This document shows, piece by piece, positions 3,244 to 30,888 of a DNA stretch of 64,000 bases; positions within the stretch are counted from its first letter, which is position 1; every line of letters starts with the position of its first letter. The stretch lies in contig NZ_FXTM01000005.1 of the NCBI RefSeq assembly GCF_900182585.1, forward strand, positions 32,049 through 96,048. The letters are read 5' to 3'. This DNA is from Balnearium lithotrophicum (lineage in GTDB: Bacteria > Aquificota > Aquificia > Desulfurobacteriales > Desulfurobacteriaceae). The notes below the pieces were generated by a model. That model saw nothing but the letters and a program-made list of their open reading frames with translations, was not told where the DNA came from and searched no databases. A program made the translations under genes and the position numbers.

Positions 3244-3251
3244 CCCCGATT

Positions 3252-4421: not shown

Positions 4422-4451
4422 TACCTCTGTTTGTTATCGTCTAAAGAATAG

Positions 4452-6108
<1,657 letters not shown>

Positions 6109-15623: not shown

Positions 15624-15633
15624 AAGGGAGAAA

Positions 15634-16842: not shown

Positions 16843-16852
16843 GGGAGGATGA

Positions 16853-17536
16853 ATGGTTCCTGTAGTTTCCTTTATTGGCTATCACAACTCAGGTAAAACA
16901 ACGTTTGCAACAGAGGTTGTAAAGATTTTAAAGGAAAGAGGATATAAGGTAGGAGTTCTAAAGTCCACGAAACACAGACAGTTAATAACCGATACTCCTG
17001 GAAAGGACTCATTTAAGTACAGGGAAGCAGGGGCTGACGCTGTAGGAATAGTTTCTCCAGATGAATTGGTTTTATTTCAGGATATAGATAGGGATAGTTT
17101 AGATCTTAATTTCCTATCCTTTCTGCTCTTTGGCGAATACGATATAGTTGTGTGTGAGGGATTCAAAAATGCCGACGTTCCGAAAATAGAGGTTTTAAAG
17201 AAGGAAAACTCCGAAAAACCCCTGTTTAAGAAGGTGGAAAACGTAATAGCCGTTATTTCCGATTTTCCCGTTGAAGAAGGAATTAGGAGATTTAATAGAA
17301 ATGACTACGATAAGGTAGCAAAATTTCTAATAGAAAACTTTATAGAAAAAGGAACAGAAGGATTTGAGAATGAGGTGGAGCTCTTCATAAATGGAAAGAA
17401 AATCCCAATAAAATACTACGATGGAGAAACGCTGAGAGAGATTCTTAACAGTTTTATAAAGCCTTTAAAGGGAATAGAGTATCCTGTTAAGAGAATGGAC
17501 GTTAGGATTGTTAGAGGGAAGGGAAGGAGAAGTTGA
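16853..17536 (+). CDS. mobB: Molybdopterin-guanine dinucleotide biosynthesis adapter MobB with a C-terminal extension of about 60 aa
   Basis: P-loop GYHNSGKTTF at the N-terminus, as in MobB. Confidence 0.75.
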   Translation: MVPVVSFIGYHNSGKTTFATEVVKILKERGYKVGVLKSTKHRQLITDTPGKDSFKYREAGADAVGIVSPDELVLFQDIDRDSLDLNFLSFLLFGEYDIVVCEGFKNADVPKIEVLKKENSEKPLFKKVENVIAVISDFPVEEGIRRFNRNDYDKVAKFLIENFIEKGTEGFENEVELFINGKKIPIKYYDGETLREILNSFIKPLKGIEYPVKRMDVRIVRGKGRRS

Positions 17537-18185
17537 ACTCTGATAGCAAATTTTGAAAGGAACCAACAAATTTGACCTTTCCTCTTTCTAAAAAGATGAC
17601 TCTATCGGAAAGTTCCTTTATTTCAAATGGGTCATGGGTTATGTGTATTACCGTTGTTTTTTCCTTAAGGTCTTTGAGAAAGGGTATTAGTGACGTCTTT
17701 GTAAAAAAATCGAGTTGATTCAGTGGTTCGTCAAGAATTAGAAGATGGGGTTTTGAGAGAAGAGCTCTAACTATGGCTACCCTTTGAGCTTCTCCCCCGG
17801 AAATTTTGGAGGGTATCTCCTGAAGAATTTCTGAGATTCCAAAGTGTTGAGAAATTTCTTCTATTTCTCTTAGTTTAGGTTTTAGACCTCTCACTTTAAA
17901 CGGGAAACACAGATTTTCTAAAACGTTCATATGAGGAAAAAGAGAAGGGGTCTGGGAAATATAGGCTATCCTTCGCTCTTCAATGGGAAGGTTTGTAATG
18001 TCTTTTCCATTAAGGTAAATCCTTCCTTTGTCAGGTTTTTCTATTCCAGTAATTATTTTTACAGTCATGCTCTTACCTGCACCACTCCTTCCGAAGATGA
18101 AAAAGTACTCCTTTTCCTCTACCTCAAATGAAACCGATAGTTCAAACTTAGAGAGCTTCTTTTTGAAGTTGACCTCAAGAAACAC
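17511..18185 (-). CDS. ABC transporter ATP-binding protein (molybdate/tungstate type, short form without TOBE domain)
   Basis: Walker A GRSGAGKS, signature LSGGEAQRVAIVRAL and Walker B LILDEP. Confidence 0.8.
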   Translation of the reverse strand: MFLEVNFKKKLSKFELSVSFEVEEKEYFFIFGRSGAGKSMTVKIITGIEKPDKGRIYLNGKDITNLPIEERRIAYISQTPSLFPHMNVLENLCFPFKVRGLKPKLREIEEISQHFGISEILQEIPSKISGGEAQRVAIVRALLSKPHLLILDEPLNQLDFFTKTSLIPFLKDLKEKTTVIHITHDPFEIKELSDRVIFLERGKVKFVGSFQNLLSEFNFSFPSL

Positions 18186-18963
18186 GGGAATATCTCCTGT
18201 AAGGTAGGGATAGAACGATGGAAAAAATTACCAAACTCAGAAAAGTTACAAGAGCAGCTATCGGCGTTGAGGAACTTAAGCCGTAATTTTCAAAACGCTC
18301 GTACATCAAGATAGGAATCGTCTTTGGATAGTAGGCTACTATTAGGAGAGCTCCCATTTCACTCACAGCCCTGGCAAAGGCAAGAACGGCTCCCCTTAAA
18401 ATAAAGGGAATACTCAGAGGAAAAATTATCAACCTGAAAACTTTAAACGGAGAGGCACCTAAAGTCCTGGCTGTCCAGATTAACTCCCTATTGACAGATT
18501 CAAACCCGGCAAGTGATGATGCTACAATGTACGAGATACTGACAAAACACATAACAACAACTATTCCGTAGATAGTATCTACAAACGTTATTCCCAACTT
18601 GGAAAGGAGCTCTCCTAAAAGGGACTTTGAATTTAGAAGTTCCAGAAATATTATTCCAACGGCAGCGTGTGGAATTACTATAGGTAAGTCAAAGAGTCCT
18701 TCTAAAAATTTCCTTCCTTTAAAGTAGCTTTGAGAGAGAACGTATGCTACAGGAACTCCCAACGTAACTCCTAAAATCGTTGAAAGGGTTGCTCCCTCAA
18801 ACGTAGTAAAGAGGGCATTCCAAACTTCCCTGTCCTTTAGAGTTTTAAGGAAACTTTCCGTGTTAAGGGAAAAAAGTAGATGAAGAATAGGGAGGATTAC
18901 AAATAAGAACGATAAGGTAGAAAAGGTTAAGATTAAGAACTTAAAGTAACTTCTTTTTCTCAT
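18175..18963 (-). CDS. ABC transporter permease (ModB/WtpB-like)
   Basis: 262 aa with six TM helices and an EAA-like loop (ARTLGASPFKVFRLIIFP). Confidence 0.75.
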   Translation of the reverse strand: MRKRSYFKFLILTFSTLSFLFVILPILHLLFSLNTESFLKTLKDREVWNALFTTFEGATLSTILGVTLGVPVAYVLSQSYFKGRKFLEGLFDLPIVIPHAAVGIIFLELLNSKSLLGELLSKLGITFVDTIYGIVVVMCFVSISYIVASSLAGFESVNRELIWTARTLGASPFKVFRLIIFPLSIPFILRGAVLAFARAVSEMGALLIVAYYPKTIPILMYERFENYGLSSSTPIAALVTFLSLVIFSIVLSLPYRRYSRVS

Positions 18964-19916
18964 TTCTTAATTAAAATAGGAGGATACATAGGTTCCTGAT
19001 AGTTCCTCCTTAAAATTTCTGCTCCTTTTCCTGAAATTATAAAATCTTCCCAGAGTTTAGCCTCTTTTGGATGGGGAGCTCCCAACACGGTAGTAATTCC
19101 GTAAACTATTGGTTTTCCCTTAATCAACTTCCCATTCGCCAACTTAACATAAACTTTTGAATAAAAGTCCTTAAACTTGATACTGGATAAGTTTATTTCA
19201 GGAGGTAACTCTACAAATTTTAGCTTGTGTTGAAGAGCTACACTTTTGTACTCGAATGCGTAATCTATAGTGCCACTCTCGAGTAATCCTAAGAGAGCAA
19301 CAGCTTTTGGTCTTATAAAAATGTGATGGTTCGTCTTTAAGCTATTTGGAACGGTAATTAAGATTCCATCCTGTTCCCTTGCTAAAGAGAGATTGGAATT
19401 TGACAGGAGACTCTCAAATATTGGCTTTTTGTAGTAAAAATCAGCCAAACTTAAGGCCATAAGAGTTCTGTATCCACAAGGGTCAAGGTTCGGATTTGAG
19501 AAACCCCATTTAACATTACTTTTCTTCAGAATCTCGTACCAGTTGTTCTCATTAATTTCATTAGAGTATTTAGAACTATTAGTGTAACAGAGAACGAGTT
19601 CGTTTCTTGCGAATGCATAAACGTGGTTTGAGAACTTTGGAAACATCAACTTGGGAATCAATGAATAATCGGCACTTGCAACAACATCACAAGGCTTCTT
19701 TAAATCTATTACCTTTCTTATTGCCTGTACACTACCACTCGGTTCAAGTCTTACATCAATTTCAGGATGTAAACGTTCAAACTCCTTCTTAGCAGCCTCA
19801 AACGGCACAGTTAAACTGCCTGCATGAAATACTATTAAATTGACTTTATCTGCTGAAAAAGAAGGAAAAGGGAAAATAGCAAAAAATAACAAAATAAAAT
19901 GAAAATATTTCATCAT
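18960..19916 (-). CDS. Periplasmic oxyanion-binding protein (ModA/WtpA-like molybdate/tungstate binding)
   Basis: Signal peptide plus a solute-binding fold of about 300 aa. Co-oriented with, and overlapping, the permease and ATPase genes. Placement beside moeA-mobB supports a Mo/W role. Confidence 0.65.
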   Translation of the reverse strand: MMKYFHFILLFFAIFPFPSFSADKVNLIVFHAGSLTVPFEAAKKEFERLHPEIDVRLEPSGSVQAIRKVIDLKKPCDVVASADYSLIPKLMFPKFSNHVYAFARNELVLCYTNSSKYSNEINENNWYEILKKSNVKWGFSNPNLDPCGYRTLMALSLADFYYKKPIFESLLSNSNLSLAREQDGILITVPNSLKTNHHIFIRPKAVALLGLLESGTIDYAFEYKSVALQHKLKFVELPPEINLSSIKFKDFYSKVYVKLANGKLIKGKPIVYGITTVLGAPHPKEAKLWEDFIISGKGAEILRRNYQEPMYPPILIKK

Positions 19917-19944
19917 ACAATCTCCTATAAAGCTAAATAAAAAT

Positions 19945-20793
19945 CTATTCTTTCTCCACCTTAATTAAGTGGTGGGAGAGTCCTGCCTTGTCCTTATCAA
20001 TTCCGAAAGCGTAGGCCATTATCTCCGGTAAAAAGGAGGATGGAACGTTTGGGGGATTTTCCATGTTTGTTTGGTAAATATCAAATGATTTGAAACATAA
20101 AGGACAGGGTGTAGCAACGATGTCCGCACCTACTTTTTTAACTCCTCCCAAAATTCTACCAAGCTTTTTTAAAGTCATTGATTTGTCCGTAAAGAAGGCG
20201 TGATATCCACAGCAGGCATCTTTTCCCTCAAAGTCATCAACAACCTCAGCTCCTAATGCCTTAAGTATCTCCTGAAGGGAAGATGGGTTGTCACTATTAT
20301 CTATTGCTATTTCTTTTGGATAGAGAACGTGGCAACCGTAGTAAGCCGCAACTTTCCAGCCTTTTAAAGGTCTCCTTACAGCCTTTTTAATTCTTTCGTA
20401 TCCTACAACATCCCTGAAAAAGTCCAAAAGGTGATAAATTTTATTTGTTCCTCTGTATTCGAGTCCTTCTTCCCTTAACAGTTCGTTTATCTCATCCCTG
20501 AGTTTTTTATTGGTGTCGAGAGCTCTCTTTGCTTTTGCAATAACCATGTAACACGTATTACAAGAAATCAGCATATCTAAACCTTGAGCTTCGGCAAGAG
20601 CAATGTTCCTTGCATTTATTGCATAAGATAGTTTTCTGTTCTCCTCATCAATTGTATTCCCACCACAACAGGTAGTTTCCTCTAAAAGGCCAAGGTCAAC
20701 GTCCAACCTTCTAAAAGTCTCCTTCATCGTTTCAAACATATGGGCATCCTGTCCCTGAAAACAGCATCCTTGATAAAACCCTATCCTAATCAC
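19945..20793 (-). CDS. Fumarate reductase/succinate dehydrogenase subunit E-type (HdrB-like, two CCG domains), copy 1
   Basis: Two Cys-rich CCG motifs (TTCCGGNTIDE and ACCGYHAFF) with further conserved Cys (CPLC). Confidence 0.8.
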   Translation of the reverse strand: MIRIGFYQGCCFQGQDAHMFETMKETFRRLDVDLGLLEETTCCGGNTIDEENRKLSYAINARNIALAEAQGLDMLISCNTCYMVIAKAKRALDTNKKLRDEINELLREEGLEYRGTNKIYHLLDFFRDVVGYERIKKAVRRPLKGWKVAAYYGCHVLYPKEIAIDNSDNPSSLQEILKALGAEVVDDFEGKDACCGYHAFFTDKSMTLKKLGRILGGVKKVGADIVATPCPLCFKSFDIYQTNMENPPNVPSSFLPEIMAYAFGIDKDKAGLSHHLIKVEKE

Positions 20794-21908
20794 TATTCAC
20801 CTCCAAAAAGTCCTTTTAACTTTGAAATGAGGCCCTTTGAGCTCTCCCCCTTCTCGTGAACCCTATCAACTATCGTACATATATCGGCCTTGAAGATATC
20901 ACTGACCATCTTGTCAATCTTCCTAACATGGGAGAAGTCCAAGTCAAGAGCTCTGTCCTCTTTAGAGAGAATTTCAAGGTATATGTCCCTAAACTTCATA
21001 AGTCCCTTTGTAGGCTTAGGAACTTCCCACACTTCAACTCCCATCTCCGTATAGGTCTTGGTGAGTTTTTCCCTTGCCTCCCTATTTCCGTAAACCTCTT
21101 CAGGCAGGTAGAGCCTGTTAATCTGTCCCGTGGCGTATATCCAATCAACAAAGTGTTTGAGCTTTTTGGCTCCAGGCTTATCAGTAAACCCTTTCTTAAC
21201 GGCCTGTCCTCTCAAGTTCTGAATGTCCTCAGCAGGCTTTACTCCCTTTGGACAAACGTACAGACACTTCTGACACTGAACACAGCTCCAAAGTCCTCCA
21301 GAGATTGAGTACCTTATTCTCTTTTCTTTTGCGGTTTCTATGTCCCTTCTATCAACCTGAAATCTATAGGCCCTTGAGAACGCAAAGGGCCCCCTGTACC
21401 TATCGTTGTCGGCAACAGCTTCACATTCGGAGTAGCATGAAAAGCAGAGCATACAGTGAATCTGGTCTTTGTAGGCCTCCAGCTCCTCAGGATAGATAAT
21501 GCTCTCGTGCATCGGGTCGCTCGGAACAACTCTCGGGTCTGGGACAAGCCACGGAATTAGGGTTTTCATCTTTTCAATTGGTTTATCAATATCAACAACC
21601 AAGTCCTTTATAACTCTCATGTGGTTGAGAGGTTCTACTCTCAGAGGCTTTCCTTTCCAGGTCTCAACCAGCTCCTTCATAGGAGTCTTACATGCAAGTT
21701 TTGTTTTTCCGTTAACCTTCATGGAACAGGAACCACAGACCTCACTCCTGCAGAAAGCCCTGAAGGCCAAAGTCGGGTCAATGTTGTCCTTTATGTAGAG
21801 AAGGGCATTTAGTAATGTACCCTCAACGGGAACTTCATAATCCTTATAGTAAGGAGCTTGGTCCTTTTCAGGGTCGTATCTAAAAACTCTGAGTATTGCG
21901 GTTTCCAT
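20793..21908 (-). CDS. Fumarate reductase/succinate dehydrogenase iron-sulfur subunit, copy 1, with a C-terminal extension of about 50 aa
   Basis: 2Fe-2S motif (CRSEVCGSCSMKVNG), 4Fe-4S motif CMLCFSCYSEC and 3Fe-4S motif CVQCQKCLYVCP. Confidence 0.85.
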   Translation of the reverse strand: METAILRVFRYDPEKDQAPYYKDYEVPVEGTLLNALLYIKDNIDPTLAFRAFCRSEVCGSCSMKVNGKTKLACKTPMKELVETWKGKPLRVEPLNHMRVIKDLVVDIDKPIEKMKTLIPWLVPDPRVVPSDPMHESIIYPEELEAYKDQIHCMLCFSCYSECEAVADNDRYRGPFAFSRAYRFQVDRRDIETAKEKRIRYSISGGLWSCVQCQKCLYVCPKGVKPAEDIQNLRGQAVKKGFTDKPGAKKLKHFVDWIYATGQINRLYLPEEVYGNREAREKLTKTYTEMGVEVWEVPKPTKGLMKFRDIYLEILSKEDRALDLDFSHVRKIDKMVSDIFKADICTIVDRVHEKGESSKGLISKLKGLFGGE

Positions 21909-21919
21909 AACTATCCTCC

Positions 21920-23614
21920 TTAGTACTTCCTTTCCTCAGGTGGAAACTTCTTGATAACTACAGGTTTCCAAGAAAGTTCGTAAGAGCCATCCTCTTTAAG
22001 TTTAATTACAGAGTGCTTTAAGAAGTTTTTATCGTCCCTATTAGGAAAGTCCTTTCTTGCATGAGCTCCCCTGCTTTCCTTCCTCTCTATAGCAGGGACG
22101 GCAATAGCAGGAGCCAAATCAACTAAGTTGAGAAACTCAAGGGCTGTGATTAAATCGGTGTTAAACTTTTTACTTGAATCGTAAACTTTTATGTGTTTAG
22201 CCCTTTCCTTTATCTCGTAAAGTTTTTCCAATCCTTCCTTCATTGAGGACTCTTCCCTAAATACTCCAAAGTGTTTCATCATAACGTTCCCAAGCTCTTT
22301 CCTCAGGTCGGCAATTTTTTCCTTTCCATCAGATTCCATAAGCTCAAGAATCCTTCTCTCATCATCTTTGACCTTTGCCAGTGAAGGAGTTGTCTCAGGA
22401 GCTTCATCGGCATACTTAACCGCTTCAAGGGCCGTTAATCTCCCGTAAACCAAAACATCAAGGAGTGAGTTTCCTCCAAGTCTGTTTGCTCCGTGAACAG
22501 AAACACAAGCACACTCACCTGCTGCATAGAGTCCCTTAATAGGGGTTCTTCCTAACTTATCCGTATCAATTCCGCCCATTGAGTAGTGAGCCGTTGGAGC
22601 AATTGGAATTGGTTCCTTAACAGGGTCAACTCCCTCGTAAAGAATTGCATGCTCTCTCGTTTGAGGAAGCCTCTCGTTTATTTTCTCCTCACCTAAGTGG
22701 GTTAAATCCAAACAGATGTAGTCACCATTTGGCCCGCAACCCCTACCTTCATCAATTTCTGTCTGTATAGCTCTTGCAACAATATCCCTTGGAGCAAGCT
22801 CCATCTTCTCGGGAGCATACCTTTTCATGAATCTTTCACCTTCCTTATTTCTCAGGTAACCACCTTCTCCCCTTGCTCCCTCTGTAACTAAAATTCCCGT
22901 TTTTGCAAGTCCTGTAGGGTGAAACTGAATGAATTCCATATCCTTTAAAGGTAATCCAGCTCTAAGTACAGCTGCAGTTCCGTCTCCCGTATTTCCTAAG
23001 GCATTTGAAGTCCTGTTCCAGTAAACCCTTGCATGTCCTCCGGTAGCTAAAATTACAGCCTTAGTCTTTATTAGGTGAACTCCCCCATTTCTAATATCCC
23101 AGGCTGTTATTCCCTCAACCCTTTCTCCGTTGTGAATAATTGAGAGGAGAAACCACTCGTTTAAGAAAGTCACATTGTTCTTTAAACACTGCTCGTACAA
23201 CGTTTGAAGTATGTAAAACCCTGTCTTATCAGCTGCATAGCATGTTCTCGGAAAGGATGCACCTCCGAAAGGCCTTTGAGCTATTCTTCCATCAGGTCTT
23301 CTTGAAAAGGGAACCCCTCTGTGGGCTATATCGTATATAACAGCTGCCCCCATTTTACACATTATGTCAACGGCATCCTGGTCAGCTAAGAAGTCGCTCC
23401 CCTTTACGGTATCGTAAGCATGGGCCTCAGGGCTATCTCCAACGGAGTGGGTTAAAACTGCGTTAATTCCCCCCTCGGCAGCTCCAGTGTGGGAACGCGT
23501 AGGATAAACCTTTGTTATAACTGCAACCTTTAAAATTGTGTTTTCGGCCGTCCAGAGTGCAGAGTAGAGTCCTGCTCCTCCGCCACCAACTATAACTATG
23601 TCGTACTCTATCAT
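21920..23614 (-). CDS. Fumarate reductase/succinate dehydrogenase flavoprotein subunit, copy 1
   Basis: Dinucleotide fold DIVIVGGGGAG, covalent-FAD His region RSHTGAAEGG, and an active site HPTG...R...H. I prefer the start at 23614 (MIEYD) with GGAGG 8 nt upstream; the ORF extends to 23629. Confidence 0.9.
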   Translation of the reverse strand: MIEYDIVIVGGGGAGLYSALWTAENTILKVAVITKVYPTRSHTGAAEGGINAVLTHSVGDSPEAHAYDTVKGSDFLADQDAVDIMCKMGAAVIYDIAHRGVPFSRRPDGRIAQRPFGGASFPRTCYAADKTGFYILQTLYEQCLKNNVTFLNEWFLLSIIHNGERVEGITAWDIRNGGVHLIKTKAVILATGGHARVYWNRTSNALGNTGDGTAAVLRAGLPLKDMEFIQFHPTGLAKTGILVTEGARGEGGYLRNKEGERFMKRYAPEKMELAPRDIVARAIQTEIDEGRGCGPNGDYICLDLTHLGEEKINERLPQTREHAILYEGVDPVKEPIPIAPTAHYSMGGIDTDKLGRTPIKGLYAAGECACVSVHGANRLGGNSLLDVLVYGRLTALEAVKYADEAPETTPSLAKVKDDERRILELMESDGKEKIADLRKELGNVMMKHFGVFREESSMKEGLEKLYEIKERAKHIKVYDSSKKFNTDLITALEFLNLVDLAPAIAVPAIERKESRGAHARKDFPNRDDKNFLKHSVIKLKEDGSYELSWKPVVIKKFPPEERKY

Positions 23615-23629
23615 TAAAAAAACCTCCAT

Positions 23630-23834
23630 ATAATTAGATTGTTTTTATTTTATGAATTTTCTCAATCAATACTAATTTTACAAAATTTTTACAATTTATT
23701 TAAGCTGACTTTCAGGAGAAAGTTTCCAATTCAAATTCCAATTCTGAAATTAATAAATTGATAGAAATAACTATAAATAAGAGATAAAATCTCACAATAA
23801 ATGATAATGATAAAGAAAAACTCAGGGAGGTTGT
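23630..23834. promoter_or_regulatory. Divergent AT-rich control region between the two paralogous fumarate reductase operons. It carries direct repeats TTTTACAA x2 (23676-23694) and TTCCAATTC x2 (23724-23744), plus a GAAAgTTTC palindrome (23718-23726).
   Basis: 205 bp of non-coding DNA at about 20% GC between divergent start codons. Repeats are read directly from the sequence. Confidence 0.5.
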
Positions 23835-25535
23835 ATGCTTCAGTACGACATTTTAATAGTAGGTGCCGGAGGTGGTGGCCTCTATGCGGCTCTGGAAACG
23901 AGCAAAAGAAAGGGGCTTAGAGTCGCAGTAATAAGTAAGGTTTTTCCTACACGCTCCCATACGGGGGCAGCTCAAGGAGGAATAAACGCGGCCTTGGGGA
24001 ACGTAGCTCCAGACAGTCCTGAAAAGCACACTTACGACACTGTAAAGGGAAGCGATTTCTTGGCCGACCAGGACGCTGTTGAGCTTATGTGTGATATGGC
24101 CCCAAAGATAATAAGGGAAATGGAACACATGGGTCTTCCCTTCTCGAGGTTAAAGGACGGAAGGATAGCTCAGAGGCCTTTTGGAGGAGCTTCATTTCCA
24201 AGGACCTGTTACGCAGCTGATAAAACAGGACATGTCATGCTCCAAACCCTTTACGAGCAGTGTTTAAAAAACGAGGTGACTTTCTTAAACGAGTGGTTTG
24301 CTCTCAATCTAATTCACAATGGAGAGAGAATATCAGGAATAGTAGCCATAAACCTTAAAACTGGAGAAGTTGAAGGAATCAGAGCAAAGGCTGTTATTCT
24401 TGCAACGGGGGGACATGGGAGAATTTACTGGAACAGAACCTCAAATGCCTTAGGAAATACGGGAGATGGTCCTGCAATGGCCTTAAGGGCAGGAGTCCCC
24501 CTTAAGGATATGGAGTTTGTTCAGTTTCACCCTACAGGACTTAGGAGAACCGGGATTTTAGTCACAGAAGGAGCAAGGGGAGAGGGTGGTTACTTAATAA
24601 ACAAAAATGGTGAAAGATTTATGAAAAGGTACGCTCCAGAAAAGATGGAGCTCGCTCCAAGAGATTTGGTTTCAAGGGCTATAGAGACAGAGATAATGGA
24701 GGGAAGGGGATTTAAAGACTCTGAGGGTAACGAATTTGTTTACCTCGATTTGAGGCACTTAGGAAGGGACAAAATATTGGAGAGACTCCCTCAAATTAGA
24801 GAACTTGCAATTGATTTTGAGGGAGTTGACCCTATAGAGGAACCTATTCCTGTAAGACCAACAGCTCACTACTCAATGGGCGGAATTGATGCAGATAAGT
24901 TTGGAAGAACTCCTCTAAAGGGACTCTATGCAGTGGGAGAGTGCGCTTGTATTTCCGTTCACGGAGCAAACAGGCTTGGAGGAAACTCACTCCTTGATAT
25001 CGTTGTCTTTGGAAAGATTGCCGGAGAGGATGCTGTTAATTTTGTTTCGGAAGTTAGTTTCTCAGATTTCAGCGAATCTGCGGTTAAGGATGAAGAGAGG
25101 AAAATTGAGAGGCTGTTTGAAAATGAGGGGACGGAAAAACTCCATCAGCTCAGGAGTGAACTTTCAGATGCAATGAGTAGAGGTGTTGGCATATTCAGGG
25201 AAGAGAAAAGGATGAAGGAAGCCCTTGAGAAGGTAAGGGAGATTAAGGAAAGGGCTAAAAAGCTTAAAGTTTACGATAGAGAAAGGTGCTTTAACACAAA
25301 TCTCCAGCAGACGTTAGAATTTCTAAATATGGTTGAGGTTGCAGAGACAATTGCCTTTTCGGCCATAGAGAGGAGGGAGAGTAGAGGAGCTCACTATAGA
25401 ACGGACTATCCGAAGAGGGACGATGAAAATTTCTTAAAACACTCTCTAACTATTAGAAAGGAAGATGGAGAGCTCTCAATCTCCTGGAAGCCCGTAAAGA
25501 TAACAAAGTTCCAGCCTGAAGAGAGAAAGTACTAA
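23835..25535 (+). CDS. Fumarate reductase/succinate dehydrogenase flavoprotein subunit, copy 2
   Basis: DILIVGAGGGG and RSHTGAAQGG motifs. Near-colinear paralog of the copy-1 flavoprotein (roughly two-thirds identical by eye). RBS GGGAGG present. Confidence 0.9.
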   Translation: MLQYDILIVGAGGGGLYAALETSKRKGLRVAVISKVFPTRSHTGAAQGGINAALGNVAPDSPEKHTYDTVKGSDFLADQDAVELMCDMAPKIIREMEHMGLPFSRLKDGRIAQRPFGGASFPRTCYAADKTGHVMLQTLYEQCLKNEVTFLNEWFALNLIHNGERISGIVAINLKTGEVEGIRAKAVILATGGHGRIYWNRTSNALGNTGDGPAMALRAGVPLKDMEFVQFHPTGLRRTGILVTEGARGEGGYLINKNGERFMKRYAPEKMELAPRDLVSRAIETEIMEGRGFKDSEGNEFVYLDLRHLGRDKILERLPQIRELAIDFEGVDPIEEPIPVRPTAHYSMGGIDADKFGRTPLKGLYAVGECACISVHGANRLGGNSLLDIVVFGKIAGEDAVNFVSEVSFSDFSESAVKDEERKIERLFENEGTEKLHQLRSELSDAMSRGVGIFREEKRMKEALEKVREIKERAKKLKVYDRERCFNTNLQQTLEFLNMVEVAETIAFSAIERRESRGAHYRTDYPKRDDENFLKHSLTIRKEDGELSISWKPVKITKFQPEERKY

Positions 25536-25544
25536 GGGGGAGTT

Positions 25545-26513
25545 ATGGAAAGTAGGAAGGTAACTTTTAGAATAAGGAGGTTTAATCCCAAAAAGGACGA
25601 AAAGCCCTACTATCAGGACTTTGAGTTGGAAGTTTCAAGGGGAATGACAATTCTCGAAGCCCTTCAGCAAATTAAGGATACTCAGGAACCAACCCTTTCC
25701 TTTAGGGCATACTGCAGGAGTGCAATTTGTGGTTCGTGTGCAGTAAAGGTCAACGGCTTTCCTAAGCTCGCCTGTAAGACACAGGTTTTTAACGAACTTG
25801 ATAAGTTTCGAACTAATACATTAACAATAGAACCCTTAGACAACATGGAAGTTGTAAGGGATTTAATCGTAGATTGGGACAAGCCTATAGATAAATTGAA
25901 AAAAATGAGAACTTACCTTATTCCAAATCCGGAGGTTGTTCCAAGTACTCTGGATGAAGAGAGCCGGGTTTACCCTGAGGAGCTTAAAAAGTTTGATACC
26001 TTTACAGACTGTATCCTCTGTACTTCCTGTTTCTCCTCGTGTACAGCCTCTCAGTTGGACGAGAACTACGGAGGTCCCTTCCAACTTTCAAGGGTTTACA
26101 GGTTTGCAGTTGACCCGAGGGATGCTTTAGGGAAAGAAAGGTCAAAGGTAGGTTATGCCTTTGATATGTGGAACTGTGTAAGGTGCAACAAGTGTGCCGA
26201 TGTTTGTCCAAAGCACATATCACCTGTTGATGGAATTATGAAGTTAAGGGGACTCTCTATTGAGGCCGGCCTTAGAAACAATCCCGGTGCAAGACACGTC
26301 ATGGCATTCTACAAGTCTCTCCTTGATTCTGGAATGTTAAACGAGGTTCTACTTCCTCTGAGAACGAAGGGAATTAAGGGAATTTTGGAAAACCTTCCCG
26401 TTGGGATAAAGATGATTTTGAAGGGGAAAGCCCACTCTCCTATTCAAAAGCCGATTTCTGAACACGAGAAATTGGTAAAACTAGTTAAATTAGCCATGGA
26501 GTTGGAGGTTTAG
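25545..26513 (+). CDS. Fumarate reductase/succinate dehydrogenase iron-sulfur subunit, copy 2
   Basis: CRSAICGSCAVKVNG, CILCTSCFSSC and CVRCNKCADVCP cluster motifs. Confidence 0.85.
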   Translation: MESRKVTFRIRRFNPKKDEKPYYQDFELEVSRGMTILEALQQIKDTQEPTLSFRAYCRSAICGSCAVKVNGFPKLACKTQVFNELDKFRTNTLTIEPLDNMEVVRDLIVDWDKPIDKLKKMRTYLIPNPEVVPSTLDEESRVYPEELKKFDTFTDCILCTSCFSSCTASQLDENYGGPFQLSRVYRFAVDPRDALGKERSKVGYAFDMWNCVRCNKCADVCPKHISPVDGIMKLRGLSIEAGLRNNPGARHVMAFYKSLLDSGMLNEVLLPLRTKGIKGILENLPVGIKMILKGKAHSPIQKPISEHEKLVKLVKLAMELEV

Positions 26514-26515
26514 GT

Positions 26516-27373
26516 ATGAAGGAGTATGCATTCTATCCAGGATGTGCGGCAAAGGGGGCCTCTAAGGAGCTCTACGAGTCAACTATAGCAGTTTCAAATA
26601 AACTCGGTCTAAAACTTAGAGAGCTCCCTCAGTTCAGCTGCTGTGGAGCTGGGGTTCTTGAGGAGGTAAAGGAAGCTGTTGACTTAGTTGTAAATGCCAG
26701 AAACATTGCCTATGCAGAGAGGGAAAATTTAGACATCGTAACAGTTTGTAGCACATGCCTTTTGGTCTTGAGGAAGACAAAGTACCTACTTGATAACGAT
26801 AAAAAACTGAGGGAGGAGGTAAACGAGCTCCTTTCTGAAGTAGGACTTGAATATAAAGGAACGGGCCAGATTAAGCACTTTCACTGGGTTTTACTTGAGG
26901 AGTTTGGAGAGGAGGAATTGAGAAAAAGGGTTGAAAAGCCACTTTCAGGAATAAAGGTCTATCCGTACTACGGATGTCATACCGTTAGGCCTTACGATAT
27001 TTTAGGGTTTGAACCTTCTGAAAATCCGCAGTCGCTAGAGAGGATTATAAGAGCTCTCGGGGCAGAGCCTGTATCCGGAAGGAGAAACTTGGAGTGCTGT
27101 GGATTCCATGCCTTTTGGCCGGCTCCAAAAATCAGCATGAGGCTAACGGGACTCAACCTTAAGGATGCTAACGATTTTGGAGCCGACTGTATAGTAACTC
27201 CCTGCCCTTTGTGCCACATGAATTTAGATGCAAACCAGAAGAGAGCTCTAAGCGAAGTTGGAGAAAACTTCCAGATTCCCGTTCTCCACTTACCTCAGTT
27301 GGTTGGAATTGCCCTCGGAATTGAGCCTAAGAAACTGGGACTCCACAGAAATATTGTTCCTGTTAACTGCTAA
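26516..27373 (+). CDS. Fumarate reductase/succinate dehydrogenase subunit E-type (two CCG domains), copy 2
   Basis: CCG motifs QFSCCGAGV and ECCGFHAFW, plus CPLCHMN. Confidence 0.8.
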   Translation: MKEYAFYPGCAAKGASKELYESTIAVSNKLGLKLRELPQFSCCGAGVLEEVKEAVDLVVNARNIAYAERENLDIVTVCSTCLLVLRKTKYLLDNDKKLREEVNELLSEVGLEYKGTGQIKHFHWVLLEEFGEEELRKRVEKPLSGIKVYPYYGCHTVRPYDILGFEPSENPQSLERIIRALGAEPVSGRRNLECCGFHAFWPAPKISMRLTGLNLKDANDFGADCIVTPCPLCHMNLDANQKRALSEVGENFQIPVLHLPQLVGIALGIEPKKLGLHRNIVPVNC

Positions 27374-27442
27374 TGGAGGGATTTTTCCCTCCACTCCCCT
27401 TTCCAATATAATTTCCTCAAAATGTAAATACCGGAGGATAGA

Positions 27443-29113
27443 ATGGTTATTCTCCTCTTTCTGACAGCTGCCGTTATATTTGCAGTTGCTTATATAACCT
27501 ACGGTAGATTTTTGAGAGACAGGGTTTTTAAACTGAAAAAGGAGAATAAAACTCCTGCCCACGAATTTAGAGACGGTGTTGATTACGTTCCAGCCCCAGC
27601 CCCCGTCCTCTTGGGACACCACTTTTCCTCGATTGCAGGAGCAGGTCCCATCGTTGGTCCTATAACTGCAGCATCATCTTGGGGATGGTTACCTGCCTAT
27701 CTATGGGTTCTCATAGGAAACATCTTTATCGGCGGCGTTCACGATATGAGCTCTTTAGTTGCATCAATTAGAAACAAGGCAAAGTCAATTGCAGAAATAG
27801 GGGGAATGTACCTTTCAAAGAGGGCTGGATTTTTGTTTAAGCTCTTCATCTGGCTTGCACTCCTCTACGTTGTTGCCGTTTTCATAAACGTTGCTCAGAT
27901 AACCTTTAACGCCAAGGTTCCGTTGATTGAGGGTGGAAAAGTTGTAGAGCTCCTTCCTATAGGTGGAGGTGTAGCAACGTCTGCACTAATCTACATAGTC
28001 CTTGCCGTTATTTTCGGGATTTTAATCTACAGGTTCAATCTATCCTTAAAAGTGACAACTGCAGTTTTTGTCATTTTAGTCTATCTGGCAGTCTACGTTG
28101 GACAGCTCTTTCCGATTAACCTTTCCCCCAACGTTTGGAACGTAGTTTTGCTCATATACGTTGCCGTTGCATCGGTTACTCCGGTTTGGATTCTCCTCCA
28201 GCCGAGGGACTACCTTTCAAGTTTCCTTCTGTACGGAGCTCTAATTGGAGCTGGCCTTGGGATTCTCCTATCGTTTGGGAAGTTTCAGCCTCACATTCCT
28301 GCCTTTTTAGGATTTAACAGCGACATTGGACCACTCTTTCCCCTTCTCTTTGTAGTTATTGCCTGCGGTTCAATTTCAGGATTTCACTCGTTAGTTTCGT
28401 CGGGAACAACATCTAAACAGCTAAACAGTGAACCCGACGCTCTAACCGTTGGTTACGGGGCAATGCTCTTAGAGGGAATCGTTGCAGTTATGTCAGTCAT
28501 CTTTGTCCTCATTCTCACAGTTCCAGAGTTTCAAATTCTGAAGAAGAACGTCGCAGCGATTTATGGAACGGGAGTTGGGAGGTTTATGTCAATTCTTGGA
28601 ATTCCTGAAAATATAGGTGTTGCATTTGGAATGCTTGCCCTCTCTTCCTTTATACTTACAAGTACAGATACAGGTACAAGACTTGCCCGCTACGTTTTTA
28701 CAGAATTAACGGGAGTTACAAACAGATTCGTTGCAACGGGGATTTCCCTCATTATTCCAGCTATTTTAGTTTTCCTAAAGTACAAAGACCCCGCTACGGG
28801 AAAGGTTCTTCCCGTCTGGAAAGCCCTCTGGCCTGTATTTGGAGCTACGAACCAACTTATAGCGGCACTTTCCCTGTTTGTCGTTATGGTTTGGATGATT
28901 AAAACCGGAAAGTACTGGTTTGTCACAGGAATTCCCTCTCTCTTTATGGCAGTTATAACACTCTGGGCTTTAGTTATGCTCTTTTTAAAGTGGAAATTTA
29001 CGGTAATAGGAGTTGCAGCCCTAATTCAGGTTTTCTTAGCCCTCTGGATTTTTTACGAAGGTTTCTTAGCACTTAAAAAACTTAGAGAGGAGACTTTTAA
29101 TGGCGGAGGCTAA
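27443..29113 (+). CDS. cstA: Carbon starvation protein A family transporter (CstA, peptide/pyruvate transporter family)
   Basis: 556-aa polytopic membrane protein with CstA-like conserved segments (HHFSSIAGAGPIVGP and GFHSLVSSGTTSKQ). Confidence 0.85.
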   Translation: MVILLFLTAAVIFAVAYITYGRFLRDRVFKLKKENKTPAHEFRDGVDYVPAPAPVLLGHHFSSIAGAGPIVGPITAASSWGWLPAYLWVLIGNIFIGGVHDMSSLVASIRNKAKSIAEIGGMYLSKRAGFLFKLFIWLALLYVVAVFINVAQITFNAKVPLIEGGKVVELLPIGGGVATSALIYIVLAVIFGILIYRFNLSLKVTTAVFVILVYLAVYVGQLFPINLSPNVWNVVLLIYVAVASVTPVWILLQPRDYLSSFLLYGALIGAGLGILLSFGKFQPHIPAFLGFNSDIGPLFPLLFVVIACGSISGFHSLVSSGTTSKQLNSEPDALTVGYGAMLLEGIVAVMSVIFVLILTVPEFQILKKNVAAIYGTGVGRFMSILGIPENIGVAFGMLALSSFILTSTDTGTRLARYVFTELTGVTNRFVATGISLIIPAILVFLKYKDPATGKVLPVWKALWPVFGATNQLIAALSLFVVMVWMIKTGKYWFVTGIPSLFMAVITLWALVMLFLKWKFTVIGVAALIQVFLALWIFYEGFLALKKLREETFNGGG

Positions 29114-29444
29114 AAGTTTAAGTGAAAAGGTATTTTTCATCGCAACTGGAATCAGGCTCCACTTAAAGGAATACTTTTTGAGAATTACTGGACTTTTCAA
29201 ACAATACGAATACTGCATCTCCTTTCCCTCAATTCCTGAGGGTTTAAAGGCTGAGAAGTACTTGAAGGAGTTTAAGGCCGTATCAATTCCAATTCCAAAC
29301 GAGATTTTTGAAGGTTGTGGAGTAGGTATTTTGGTTAAGGAGGAAGACCTTGAAAATCTGTTAAAACACTTAAAGGAAAAGGGAATTTTAGTTTCCGGTG
29401 TATTTAAGAGGGAGGGAGAAAAATTTGTTGAGGTGAAGCGTTGA
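29100..29444 (+). CDS. Small cytoplasmic protein of unknown function, possibly DUF3343-like. Translationally coupled to cstA and gpsA.
   Basis: 114-aa ORF whose start overlaps the cstA stop and whose end overlaps the gpsA start. No recognisable motif. Confidence 0.4.
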   Translation: MAEAKSLSEKVFFIATGIRLHLKEYFLRITGLFKQYEYCISFPSIPEGLKAEKYLKEFKAVSIPIPNEIFEGCGVGILVKEEDLENLLKHLKEKGILVSGVFKREGEKFVEVKR

Positions 29445-30418
29445 AAATAGCAGTTTTGGGCTCTGGAAGCTGGGGTTCGGCACTCTCCATCCACTTTGGA
29501 AGGAACGAATTTGATGTTGTTCAGTGGTGCAGAGAGAGGGAGGTTTCTGAGGAAATTAACTCCTTTAGGGAGAATAGAACCTATCTTCCCGGATTTAAGT
29601 ATCCGGAAAGGGTAAGGGCAACTTCCTCCGTTGAAAGAGCTTTAGAGGGTGTGGAGATTGTTTTCTCTGTAATACCAACTCAGTTTACAGCCTCTTTCTG
29701 GAGGGACAATAAGGAGCTCCTACATGGAAAATCCTTGGTCTGTGCGAGTAAGGGAATAGAGATTGAAAGTTTAAAAACGCTCTCTGAACTTTACGGTGAG
29801 ATATTTGGCTCTTTAGAGAACTATTACGTCCTCTCGGGTCCAACCTTCGCGAGGGAAATTGCTTCAGGTCTTCCTGCTGCAGCTGTTGTATCAAATGAAA
29901 ACTTGGAGAGGGCTCTCAATATAGTTAAGCTCCTAAATACTCCCTCCTTCAGGCTCTATGCCTCGAGTGATGTTAAGGGAGTTGAATTGGGGGGAGCTCT
30001 GAAGAACGTTATTGCAATCGCAACGGGAATTTCCGATGGCATGGGATTTGGAAACAACGCAAGGGCAGCACTGATAACGAGGGGACTCCACGAAATTAAG
30101 AGGCTTGGAAGGAAATTGGGAGCAAGGGAGGAAACCTTTTACGGCCTTTCGGGAGTCGGCGACCTTGTTCTAACCTGTACAGGAGACCTTTCAAGGAACA
30201 GACAGTTTGGAATCTCAATAGCCAAAGGAGATAGGAGGGAAGGAAACTTCGTCGTTGAGGGTGTTTACACAGTAAAGGCCGTTCATGAGCTATCCAAGAG
30301 GCTAAACATTGAGATGCCAATATCTGAGGCCGTATATAGAATTATCTATGATGGAGTTGAACCGAAGGAGGTAATAAGGGAGCTCCTTTCAAGGCCTGTA
30401 AAGGAGGAAAGCAGTTAA
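29441..30418 (+). CDS. gpsA: NAD(P)H-dependent glycerol-3-phosphate dehydrogenase
   Basis: MKIAVLGSGSWGSALS Rossmann start and conserved GpsA core (GLKNVIAIA-like: ALKNVIAIATG). Confidence 0.9.
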   Translation: MKIAVLGSGSWGSALSIHFGRNEFDVVQWCREREVSEEINSFRENRTYLPGFKYPERVRATSSVERALEGVEIVFSVIPTQFTASFWRDNKELLHGKSLVCASKGIEIESLKTLSELYGEIFGSLENYYVLSGPTFAREIASGLPAAAVVSNENLERALNIVKLLNTPSFRLYASSDVKGVELGGALKNVIAIATGISDGMGFGNNARAALITRGLHEIKRLGRKLGAREETFYGLSGVGDLVLTCTGDLSRNRQFGISIAKGDRREGNFVVEGVYTVKAVHELSKRLNIEMPISEAVYRIIYDGVEPKEVIRELLSRPVKEESS

Positions 30419-30888
30419 TGGGATGTTGCAACTTTGGAAGAGAAGATGAGGAATTTCCGTTTGAAACAGAGGCAGAGAAACTAATAGAGGGAATAAATCC
30501 CCAGTGGAAGTTAAATAGAACATTCAGGGTAAGAACAAAAAAGGAGGAAATCAAGAGGAAGCTTGAATCTGTAAGGAATGCACTTATTGGTTTTCCAGAA
30601 GAGGGAAAAATCAACTATCTAATATCGCTAATGGAAAGACCTATTCCGGAGGAAAATAGGGATAAATTTTCCTTTATAGTTGATAAATACCTCATTCCCT
30701 TTTTAAACAGGTTGGTTTTTTACAGGGTTAACGAGCCGGAAGGGGCTGAGGAGCTTAAGTTGATAATCGAGGAAATTTTTAAAGAGGTTTCAACTTTTAA
30801 AAAGAGGTTGAGGGAAAAGGAGATAGAATCTGCTTTGGATGTACTGATTGGAGCTCTATACCAGCAGCTGGAGGAGGGAAATGATTGA
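30418..30888 (+). CDS. Hypothetical acidic cytoplasmic protein (156 aa), no recognisable domain
   Basis: ORF coupled by ATGA-type overlap to gpsA and overlapping the phoU start. N-terminal MGCCNFG, otherwise charged and helical. Confidence 0.45.
   Translation: MGCCNFGREDEEFPFETEAEKLIEGINPQWKLNRTFRVRTKKEEIKRKLESVRNALIGFPEEGKINYLISLMERPIPEENRDKFSFIVDKYLIPFLNRLVFYRVNEPEGAEELKLIIEEIFKEVSTFKKRLREKEIESALDVLIGALYQQLEEGND

Follow-up and report, generated by a model that had tools for sequence, protein, structure and literature searches.

What do two adjacent sets of genes resembling fumarate reductases do in Balnearium lithotrophicum, a strictly anaerobic, obligately H2-dependent, CO2-fixing and sulfur-reducing vent autotroph? 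At positions 19945-27373 of the window (the whole 64-kb stretch of DNA that was analyzed), two divergent three-gene operons each encode a flavoprotein (A), an iron-sulfur (FeS) protein (B) and a double-CCG protein (E). We favor, with a probability of about 0.6, the interpretation that the two operons specify isoenzymes of a non-classical type E (SdhABE-type) fumarate reductase, ancient paralogs that differ mainly in regulation and tuning. By analogy, the most likely task of both copies is fumarate reduction in CO2 fixation.

Gene content and cofactor ligands

Copy 1 lies on the minus strand and comprises E1 (19945..20793, 282 aa), an HdrB-like, SdhE-type subunit with two Pfam CCG domains, B1 (20793..21908, 371 aa), with Fer2_3 and 4Fe-4S dicluster domains followed by a C-terminal tail of ~130 residues, and A1 (21920..23614, 564 aa; TIGR01812, 803 bits). 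Copy 2, on the plus strand, comprises A2 (23835..25535, 566 aa; TIGR01812, 852 bits), B2 (25545..26513, 322 aa; Fer2_3 and 4Fe-4S dicluster) and the SdhE-type E2 (26516..27373, 285 aa; two CCG domains, E 6e-32). Both flavoproteins matched FAD_binding_2 and Succ_DH_flav_C (E 1e-114 and 1e-118). E1 is identical to RefSeq WP_142934435.1 of B. lithotrophicum, and A2 to WP_142934441.1. The ORF coordinates are exactly those of an earlier, sequence-only reading, and the ORF positions and domains bear out its description of two type E (A/B/CCG) operons arranged head to head. The ORF list starts A1 at 23629 and the public gene call at the ATG at 23614, which has GGAGG 8 nt upstream; translation probably does not begin at the upstream in-frame ATG, 23629.

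Sequence analysis agreed with the same reading that the enzymes face the cytoplasm and have neither a Tat signal nor an SdhC/D-type anchor. A Tat leader is absent from A1 and A2, in which the GxGxxG dinucleotide fold lies right at the N-terminus, and both align to the SdhA model of 8-methylmenaquinol:fumarate reductase (MFR) only from model position 48. From 19-residue hydropathy windows, no transmembrane segment was predicted for B1, B2, E1 or E2; the sole window over the usual threshold falls in A1, on a helix of its C-terminal half. No SdhC/D-type gene occurs within or beside either operon. There is no pseudo-paralog here: A1 and A2 keep the FAD-His and every catalytic residue, B1 and B2 all cluster cysteines, and E1 and E2 all ten conserved CCG cysteines. 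The third cluster motif of B1 and B2 is CxxCxxCxxxCP, which would imply a second [4Fe-4S] cluster instead of a [3Fe-4S]. In an AF2 model of B1 (pLDDT 88.5), residues 1-244 superposed on FrdB of E. coli (TM 0.91), and residues 240-340, in the tail, formed a confident helical domain. The tail is kept across Aquificota B1-type proteins; HdrC chains were weaker structural matches. The best NCBIfam match of B2 was PRK12576 (276 bits, under the cut-off of 344).

Among the closest characterized systems are the type E (non-classical) succinate:quinone oxidoreductases, such as SdhABEF of Sulfolobus/Acidianus (PMC2754724), which share with Balnearium the covalent-FAD histidine, the extra cysteine in the third cluster motif, the lack of a transmembrane anchor, and an SdhE with two CCG motifs and ten cysteines. 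Balnearium differs in having no gene for an SdhF-like small subunit and in being a bacterial, anaerobic host; while the archaeal enzyme is an aerobic succinate:caldariellaquinone reductase, those of Balnearium would be expected, by analogy, to reduce fumarate with a naphthoquinol. The MFR (SdhABE) of Wolinella succinogenes and Campylobacter jejuni (PMC2680327), which acts as a fumarate reductase only, has the same sdhABE layout, type E FeS pattern and CCG anchor. Its SdhE was the top NCBIfam equivalog for E2 and, narrowly, for E1, and MFR was among the best for B1 and B2, but all scores against MFR equivalogs were far under the cut-offs. In addition, MFR is exported via a Tat leader of ~40 residues and has non-covalent FAD (Ala for His), whereas both Balnearium copies have the His and no leader. 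In the TfrB of methanogens (TfrAB/HdrBC), an HdrC-like and an HdrB-like module are fused, and the B tail and E are their counterparts; HdrB structures were matched by E1 and E2 (E about 1e-38) and HdrC weakly by the B1 model. In Balnearium, however, separate genes encode the FeS and CCG modules, scores against the TfrA/TfrB equivalogs were well under the cut-offs, and no link to CoM/CoB was seen. Compared with E. coli FrdABCD/SdhCDAB (type D/type C), the flavoprotein catalytic residues and the first 240 residues of B are shared, but Balnearium has no membrane-spanning C/D subunits, a third cluster predicted to be [4Fe-4S] and not [3Fe-4S], and long C-terminal B tails.

From these likenesses, we propose that a cytoplasmic flavoprotein with covalent FAD would convert fumarate to succinate for the reductive TCA (rTCA) cycle, with electrons delivered via an FeS subunit predicted to carry a [2Fe-2S] and two [4Fe-4S] clusters. 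With its HdrC-like C-terminal tail, this subunit presumably clamps the HdrB-like double-CCG subunit. The latter would replace a transmembrane anchor and is thought to sit on the inner membrane face; by analogy we infer that both complexes associate with the membrane, and menaquinol is the assumed donor.

Age, conservation and expression of the pair

A1 and A2 are 68% identical and colinear, with one 2-residue gap (E = 0), B1 and B2 are 43% identical (2e-86), and E1 and E2 38% (7e-68), all far beyond chance. Each copy is 74-89% identical to its orthologs in other genera versus 38-68% to its own paralog, so the pair predates the radiation of the Desulfurobacteriaceae. Other Aquificota and Lebetimonas (Nautiliales) have solitary copy-1-type operons. 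The colinearity and similarity of the A genes, their adjacency in inverted orientation, and the grouping of A2 with copy-1-type Aquificota flavoproteins (bootstrap 99) could speak for a recent in-place tandem (inverted) duplication of the operon, in which B and E diverged fast and gene conversion possibly kept the A genes alike. We regard this scenario as highly improbable. Over four genera, A1 and A2 each form a monophyletic clade (bootstrap 100/100), A1 grouped with a solitary Aquificota operon (95) and not with A2 (3), and no region of A had raised A1-A2 identity relative to A1-L085 or A2-L085 (L085 being another of the loci compared). The B1+B2 and E1+E2 groupings were recovered in 0/100 bootstraps: E1 fell in an SdhE subfamily with other Aquificota and Nautiliales (bootstrap 96), E2 in one with Chlorobi, Firmicutes and Campylobacterota, and a split with 100% bootstrap support separates them. 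That A and E have conflicting histories points to old paralogy or to the recruitment of subunits rather than to anything recent. Thus, of the previously suggested duplication followed by divergence, the similarity and colinearity of the A genes stood, but the paralogy is older than the family, B and E are far diverged, and E1 and E2 belong to different subfamilies.

Publications on relatives already describe this pair and show its expression. In Thermovibrio ammonificans (eLife 2017, PMC5441870) it is the head-to-head pair Theam_1270-1275, with all six proteins in the proteome, and Desulfurobacterium thermolithotrophum HR11 (AEM 2025, PMC12724263) has "two fumarate reductase operons" (GFV12_01890-01915), whose copies we assigned to locus tags by gene order. 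Both species have orthologous genes in the same head-to-head order as Balnearium and share flanking genes with it, and at 90% identity the E1 proteins of T. ammonificans and Balnearium cluster together. Both papers name them rTCA fumarate reductases and show the proteins to be made; the two copies are not told apart there by subfamily, flavin-site residue or upstream element, and the menaquinol donor is an assumption. We also found the pair in Phorcysia and in one metagenomic Desulfurobacteriaceae contig. Among the flanks common with relatives, DapF and a UDG-family uracil-DNA glycosylase adjoin copy 1; the tungstate transporter genes wtpABC start within 28 nt after copy 1 in Balnearium but not in the other genera.

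In HR11 at 2 uM H2, A and B of copy 1 rose 18-fold and 8-fold, respectively, alongside rTCA enzymes, while the copy-2 orthologs were abundant and changed 1.3-2.4-fold, TMT intensities being only roughly comparable between proteins (PMC12724263). In nitrate-grown T. ammonificans, copy-1 proteins reached 2-3 times the level of copy 2 (NSAF% 0.09/0.11/0.18 versus 0.07/0.03/0.05; PMC5441870), so a housekeeping role of copy 2 is not uniform. One contig from a metagenome-assembled genome (L002) has copy 2 but has lost copy 1, of which a ~100-nt E1 remnant is left; it is a co-assembled contig, in which an artefact is possible. In the literature on these operons we found no description of such a deletion with its 100-nt scar. 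We infer that the regulation of the relatives' copies holds in Balnearium too. Copy 2 would then be the standing enzyme of a pair kept side by side throughout the Desulfurobacteriaceae, and copy 1 the conditional one. Copy 1 is set apart by its own conserved upstream repeat, an FrdA-like Glu, the SdhE subfamily of its E subunit and the greater length of its FeS tail; in D. thermolithotrophum, H2 limitation strongly induces it, and one lineage has apparently lost it.

Direction of the reaction and electron donor

The sequence-only reading held that donor and direction could not be read from the sequence, which was essentially right, although one weak marker differs between the copies. Five residues past the FAD-His, A1 has a Glu, as E. 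coli FrdA does, and A2 a Gln, as in SdhA; in the E. coli enzymes, Glu versus Gln at this flavin site is documented to bias towards reduction versus oxidation. The Glu is fixed in 7/7 Aquificota copy-1-type flavoproteins examined and, among the relatives sampled, was found in that clade, in E. coli FrdA and at two unrelated loci; the literature on these operons yielded no description of this Gln→Glu change in the Aquificota copy-1 clade. The Gln of A2 is shared by nearly every relative, among them the Chlorobi and Aquificaceae flavoproteins. Both are lineages that fix CO2 by the rTCA cycle. Since they have the Gln, the marker is a poor predictor of direction in this subfamily.

This residue, together with the scores against TIGR01816 'sdhA_forward' (A2 744, just above the cut-off of 727; A1 725.5, just below), is what favors the proposal that one copy is a succinate dehydrogenase (succinate:quinone reductase) and the other the rTCA fumarate reductase. 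Yet an obligate anaerobic H2 autotroph makes a succinate-oxidizing role unlikely: the host belongs to a family of strict anaerobes whose growth is confined to H2 plus CO2, and all six orthologs are made autotrophically in two cultured relatives. In the published HR11 data both copies rise with rTCA enzymes under H2 limitation, and the abundant copy-2 orthologs do not fall. Furthermore, succinate oxidation is endergonic with a menaquinone pool, as established bioenergetics holds, and in the characterized bacterial type E enzyme, the MFR of W. succinogenes, oxidation of succinate could not be detected. We therefore give this division of labor a very small chance. Even less credible is that one copy is part of a soluble five-subunit NADH-dependent fumarate reductase as in Hydrogenobacter thermophilus, which belongs to the same phylum; the local motif FIQFHPTGLAKTG is common to A1 and Aquificaceae flavoproteins, but the latter form a separate clade. 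The subunits in Aquifex/Hydrogenobacter are FrdA, a 27-kDa FrdB, and proteins of 59.5, 53 (Nox-like) and 19 kDa (DmsB-like), encoded by scattered genes, and none has the size or name of a ~32-kDa CCG protein, whereas the Balnearium B is long-tailed and co-operonic with a CCG protein and no Nox-like or DmsB-like gene adjoins the operons.

A different donor for copy 1 deserves more weight, although we still consider it unlikely. Its HdrB-like subunit might keep thiol/disulfide or persulfide chemistry and accept electrons from a low-molecular-weight thiol, a sulfane-sulfur carrier or a soluble partner instead of a quinol; copy 1 would then be a bacterial analogue of the methanogen thiol:fumarate reductase, and copy 2 the quinol enzyme. 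The host respires sulfur, the type E literature derives SdhE from a thiol:fumarate reductase ancestor, and a 2026 genome survey stated that Aquificota have to reduce fumarate by "a different mechanism" than that of the classical quinol enzymes, leaving the donor open. The best PDB relatives of E1 were HdrB chains (E 8e-38), and E1 had equal scores for HdrB and SdhE (176 and 179 bits), while E2 leaned towards MFR_anch_SdhE (291 versus 223 bits, both under the cut-offs); these equal scores, however, reflect overall divergence and not HdrB affinity. Likewise, the ten HdrB-type cysteines are invariant in E1, but equally so in SdhE of known quinone-linked enzymes. In three solitary copy-1-type operons of uncultured Aquificota, B and E are separated by a rhodanese whose CRxGxR active site is intact. 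Against this, the operon-embedded family is tiny (16 clusters), no homolog was found in the window or in Desulfurobacteriaceae loci, the Lebetimonas operon has none, and the operon has no linked thiol cofactor pathway.

Intergenic region and copy-1 upstream element

The A1 and A2 starts are separated by an AT-rich spacer of 220 bp (23615..23834), the putative promoter region out of which both operons would be transcribed divergently. Consensus promoter scans of this spacer performed no better than on shuffled sequence. When it was read and aligned with those of three other genera, the only long invariant block of the four-genus alignment was a 20-nt element, TTGTAAAAATTTTGTAAAAT (23675..23694, minus strand), about 60-80 nt upstream of the A1 start. 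The element is a direct repeat, with TTGTAAAA occurring twice at 11-nt spacing, and the literature on these operons yielded no description of it. It is absent from L002, in which copy 1 is deleted, and from solitary copy-1-type operons. Within the window it is unique at <=3 mismatches (0.01 expected), and it recurs with 0-1 mismatch in the loci L082, L083 and L086. We consider this repeat a candidate promoter or operator of copy 1.

Composition and class of the two operons

The divergent pair was analyzed gene by gene, and the limits proposed for it by the sequence-only reading (19945-27373) were found to enclose six genes exactly. Copy 1, on the minus strand, comprises E1 (19945-20793; two Pfam CCG domains), B1 (20793-21908; an SdhB/FrdB iron-sulfur protein according to Pfam and NCBIfam) and the SdhA/FrdA flavoprotein A1 (21920-23614; TIGR01812, 803 bits). 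Copy 2, on the plus strand, comprises the flavoprotein A2 (23835-25535; TIGR01812, 852 bits), B2 (25545-26513; SdhB/FrdB by the same two databases) and the double-CCG protein E2 (26516-27373; two Pfam CCG domains). Gaps between genes do not exceed 11 nt in either operon. An alternative in-frame ATG exists for A1 at 23629; the public gene call starts at the ATG at 23614, which is preceded by GGAGG at proper spacing, and with this start the divergent spacer spans 23615-23834.

Alignment to E. coli FrdA and SdhA revealed that A1 and A2 keep the motifs RSHTGAA(E/Q)GG, HPTG, TEGARGEGG, APRD, AHYSMGG, and GANRLGGNS, with the FAD-linking histidine and all dicarboxylate-site residues intact. Motifs for the [2Fe-2S] and the first [4Fe-4S] cluster can be read in both B1 and B2. 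Their third cluster motif is CxxCxxCxxxCP (CVQCQKCLYVCP in B1, CVRCNKCADVCP in B2), as opposed to CxxxxxCxxxCP in E. coli (CHSIMNCVSVCP in SdhB), and the extra cysteine is the type-E mark of a second [4Fe-4S] cluster replacing [3Fe-4S] (PMC2754724, PMC2680327). All ten CCG cysteines occur in E1 and E2 and were invariant in 45/45 homologs. Residues 1-244 of B1, as modelled by AlphaFold (pLDDT 88.5), overlay E. coli FrdB (TM 0.91), and residues 240-340 form a confident helical domain with HdrC chains as weaker structural matches. E1 matched structures of HdrB, the heterodisulfide reductase subunit, at an E-value of about 1e-38. Sequence and fold searches found no type-E complex II among solved structures.

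Neither flavoprotein appears to be exported. A1 and A2 place the GxGxxG Rossmann fold at the very N-terminus and align to NF042982 (the model of SdhA from 8-methylmenaquinol:fumarate reductase, MFR) from model position 48, which leaves no room for a signal peptide. Neither B nor E had a predicted transmembrane helix in either copy, and no anchor gene of the SdhC/D or FrdC/FrdD type was found within the operons or their flanks. The sole hydropathy peak over the usual threshold (1.77, A1 residues 493-511) was judged to be a helix of a soluble flavoprotein rather than a membrane segment, since the C-terminal half, where it occurs, aligns well within a family that lacks membrane-spanning members. 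These results, together with intact ligands and two CCG domains in each E subunit, agree with what had been read from the sequence, i.e., type-E operons of flavoprotein, FeS, and CCG subunits with neither a Tat signal nor an SdhC/D-type anchor. Loss of the FAD histidine or of cluster ligands from one copy, which would have made it a pseudo-paralog, was discarded, as both ligand sets are complete.

Judged by their sequence features, the assignment of both copies to type E holds. They share the FAD histidine, the dicarboxylate-site residues, the extra cysteine of the third motif, and two CCG domains without an anchor. Archaeal type-E enzymes also have a small SdhF, whereas no SdhF-like small ORF is conserved in either operon; bacterial SdhABE enzymes such as MFR likewise lack it (PMC2680327), so its absence is compatible with the bacterial branch.

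Membership in other named classes was rejected. On the one hand, MFR has a periplasmic SdhA with a Tat signal and an N-terminal extension of ~40 residues (PMC2680327), and its FAD is non-covalently bound with Ala at the histidine position, whereas A1 and A2 have no leader and both carry His. Scores of copy 1/copy 2 against the MFR models (NF042982, NF042952, and NF042965) also fell under the equivalog cut-offs (622/647 vs 1100 for A, 193/231 vs 600 for B, and 179/291 vs 500 for E). In the methanogen thiol:fumarate reductase TfrAB, the FeS domain and two CCG domains form a single polypeptide (TfrB), whereas B and E are separate genes here, and again the scores were under the cut-offs (160/187 vs 385 for NF004898, 485/530 vs 718 for NF004900). 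HdrB itself occurs in the context of HdrA/HdrC genes, unlike E1 and E2, which accompany SdhA/SdhB and score 176 and 223 against TIGR03288 (cut-off 345). On the other hand, the classical types A-D would be expected to have one or two membrane-spanning anchors, of which there are none in the operons or flanks. The FrdABCDE enzyme of Hydrogenobacter and Aquifex consists of a ~27-kDa FrdB and Nox-like, DmsB-like, and 59-kDa subunits from dispersed genes, and its subunit list names no CCG protein (PMC10052474). By contrast, B here has a mass of 36-43 kDa and shares its operon with a CCG protein, and no Nox-like, DmsB-like or 59-kDa partner is adjacent to the operons. Subunit composition in the Aquifex list thus excludes the five-subunit NADH-dependent fumarate reductase of Hydrogenobacter, and the E1 subfamily was rejected as a CCG part of that enzyme, since the same list has no CCG-sized or CCG-named subunit (PMC10052474).

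Distribution and ancestry of the pair

A2 and E1 have exact matches among the RefSeq proteins of Balnearium lithotrophicum (Desulfurobacteriaceae, Aquificota), a strictly anaerobic vent chemolithoautotroph living on H2, CO2, and S0 at 70-75 °C. The head-to-head pair is also present in D. thermolithotrophum HR11, Phorcysia thermohydrogeniphila, T. ammonificans (Theam_1270-1275), and one metagenomic Desulfurobacteriaceae contig, and in none of the remaining loci from the flavoprotein scan. Theam_1270-1275 were described as the fumarate reductase of the reductive TCA (rTCA) cycle, with the CCG proteins tentatively named "fumarate reductase associated protein" (eLife 2017, PMC5441870), and HR11 was reported to encode "two fumarate reductase operons" (AEM 2025, PMC12724263). 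With RefSeq annotation and two papers already covering the pair, its novelty is low; the window contributes an ortholog and comparative detail, not a new system.

Copies 1 and 2 are 68% identical in the colinear A subunits, 43% in B, and 38% in E. Bootstrapped neighbour-joining trees of homologs retrieved by the searches recovered A1, A2, B1, B2, and E2 each as a monophyletic clade across genera with bootstrap 100 (63 for E1). E1 belongs to a subfamily with other Aquificota and Nautiliales (bootstrap 96), parted by a 100% split from the subfamily of E2, Chlorobi, Firmicutes, and Campylobacterota. B1 grouped with its counterpart from a solitary Aquificota operon (bootstrap 100), and a grouping of B1 with B2 was never recovered. 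A2, in turn, was sister to A1 plus the solitary Aquificota flavoprotein (99% support), so the histories of A and E disagree. Gene conversion between the inverted A genes was rejected, as sliding-window identity between A1 and A2 nowhere exceeds that of either to the flavoprotein of L085 (a solitary copy-1-type operon of uncultured Aquificota), and clustering by species is not seen in the A1 and A2 clades. From these sequence comparisons we conclude that the copies reflect ancient paralogy, and that B2 and E2 are possibly of other origin. Duplication followed by divergence, as originally proposed, stands insofar as the flavoproteins are similar and colinear; a recent duplication in place does not, since the trees show old paralogy. 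Copy-1-type operons also stand alone in Lebetimonas (A-B-E) and uncultured Aquificota. In loci of Chlorobiales and Chloroherpeton, L015 (9760-11766) and L018 (9763-11766), tandem FeS genes for a short (~250 aa) and a long (~350 aa) protein lie between the flavoprotein and CCG genes.

Expression, regulation, and function of the two copies

All six proteins were detected in the nitrate-grown proteome of T. ammonificans (PMC5441870), with NSAF% values of 0.09 (E1), 0.11 (B1), 0.18 (A1), 0.07 (A2), 0.03 (B2), and 0.05 (E2). For HR11, copies were assigned by combining the tables of PMC12724263 with the gene order of the HR11 record, in which HypF (GFV12_01885) is followed by E2, B2, A2, A1, B1, and E1. 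In these tables, the copy-2 orthologs are abundant (normalised intensities of about 2000-4600) and change 1.3-2.4-fold, and the A and B subunits of copy 1 are low at 43 uM H2 (about 120-180) and up 18- and 8-fold at 2 uM H2; E1 was detected without quantification. Table S3 names GFV12_01890 as the flavoprotein subunit (FdrA) of fumarate reductase, an apparent labelling slip, as by gene order this is the 286-aa copy-2 CCG subunit (3360-4220 in the HR11 record).

The best-supported picture is that of two cytoplasm-facing type-E fumarate reductase isoenzymes that would supply the rTCA cycle. In each, the CCG subunit would accept electrons from a donor, and the three clusters of B would carry them on to FAD, a path and catalytic direction that we draw from host physiology and expression in relatives. 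By analogy with the type-E literature (PMC2754724, PMC2680327), the donor may be menaquinol and the complexes may bind the membrane monotopically; both expression studies (PMC5441870, PMC12724263) assume membrane-bound, menaquinol-dependent enzymes. Succinate oxidation by one copy, suggested by the sequence-only reading, is unlikely. The fifth residue past the FAD histidine is Glu in A1 and Gln in A2, corresponding to Glu49 of E. coli FrdA and Gln50 of SdhA, a position that in E. coli shifts efficiency towards reduction or oxidation. Glu is fixed in 7/7 Aquificota copy-1-type flavoproteins examined; nearly all other relatives, the Chlorobi and Aquificaceae flavoproteins among them, have Gln. 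Within this subfamily the site marks copy 1 as specially tuned rather than copy 2 as a dehydrogenase.

Copy 1 is also set apart by its FeS subunit and its upstream region. The C-terminus of B1 is ~50 residues longer, and this tail is conserved across Aquificota with a flexible amphipathic end. A third kind of FeS subunit (341-342 aa, 42-47% identical to B1) in D. atlanticum and Desulfurobacterium sp. (P0131-P0135) shares part of the tail, with the last ~30 residues missing, and may be either a divergent copy 1 or a third paralog. Located 60-80 nt upstream of A1 and in its direction, a 20-nt element (TTGTAAAAATTTTGTAAAAT; 23675-23694, minus strand) consists of TTGTAAAA repeated at 11-nt spacing. 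No other long block of the spacer is invariant in all four genera; the element occurs once in the window and is absent where copy 1 is absent. We regard it as a good candidate promoter or operator for the H2-dependent induction. Scans for sigma-70 promoters and terminators gave counts at or near shuffled expectation, and an Rfam scan of 15000-32000 had no match. In the metagenome-assembled contig L002 (CAZQLZ010000108.1), whose A2 is 86% identical, the flanking genes lead directly into A2-B2-E2, and all that is left of E1 is a remnant (3348-3448, ~100 nt, 79% identical to window positions 20465-20564), bounded by a gene for a UDG-family uracil-DNA glycosylase and by the A2 ortholog. It thus appears that this Phorcysia-like lineage has lost copy 1 and its neighbours by deletion but retained copy 2, which fits an accessory role for copy 1, although the contig is co-assembled and may contain an artefact.

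An alternative is that copy 1 is linked to thiols or persulfides. The hint comes from three solitary copy-1-type operons of uncultured Aquificota, in which a rhodanese of 132-135 aa is embedded between the FeS and CCG genes (L085 7485-7892, L089 7445-7843, L090 5463-5861) with an intact active-site loop (CRAGVRS in L089, CRSGVRS in L085). However, rhodanese is absent from the Desulfurobacteriaceae loci (tblastn against these and the window gave insignificant matches only), and the operon-embedded family is small, with 16 metagenomic clusters in a database of 5.8 billion proteins. Such a link is possible. It seems rather improbable to us that copy 1 represents a distinct, uncharacterised class of fumarate reductase of thermophilic rTCA autotrophs (Aquificota, Nautiliales), in which the HdrB-like module takes thiol, persulfide or other non-quinol input. 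The marks of this class would be the E1-type CCG subunit, the long HdrC-like FeS tail, and, in Aquificota, the Glu near the FAD histidine. If true, copy 1 would be turned on under H2 scarcity as a route of high affinity or distinct energetics, and this would answer what a 2026 survey asked, namely by what means Aquificota without classical anchors reduce fumarate. That survey considered anchors of the classical C/D kind alone and made no mention of CCG proteins, and according to it fumarate reduction is the one rTCA step for which the electron donor in Aquificota has yet to be settled.

The ancient coexistence of two type-E isoenzymes in one family provides a natural comparison for enzyme tuning: in a relative, H2 limitation induces one copy, a natural variant does without one, and the two differ at the flavin-site residue that biases direction in E. 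coli. The subfamily split, the Glu marker, the upstream repeat, the deletion scar, and the sister operons with rhodanese are modest leads to open biochemistry. L089 and L090 also contain a 208-aa ORF between A and B with a weak, sub-threshold match to Uma2 nucleases.

Neighbouring genes

The flanks vary between genera (wtpABC here vs ArsP in Desulfurobacterium and Phorcysia on one side; CstA here vs HypF or a helicase in other genera on the other), so neither operon has a conserved accessory partner. The tungstate transporter genes wtpA/B/C (17511-19916, minus strand) begin 28 nt past the E1 stop codon, across a gap that contains GGAGA as ribosome-binding site and lacks a hairpin of terminator type. 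In Balnearium, copy 1 and wtpABC may for these reasons share a transcript; the linkage does not occur in Desulfurobacterium or Phorcysia. Just beyond wtpABC are the molybdopterin cofactor genes MoeA and MobB (15541-17536, plus strand). On the other side, 70 nt after E2, are genes for a 556-aa CstA-family transporter and a small protein of 114 aa resembling Se/S carriers (PF11823) at 27443-29444 (plus strand), unconserved in other genera. Elsewhere in the window, and unrelated to the fumarate reductase operons, a 1066-aa fusion of a BcrAD/BadFG ATPase and DUF2229, resembling CoA-enzyme activases, is encoded at 41181-44381 (minus strand).
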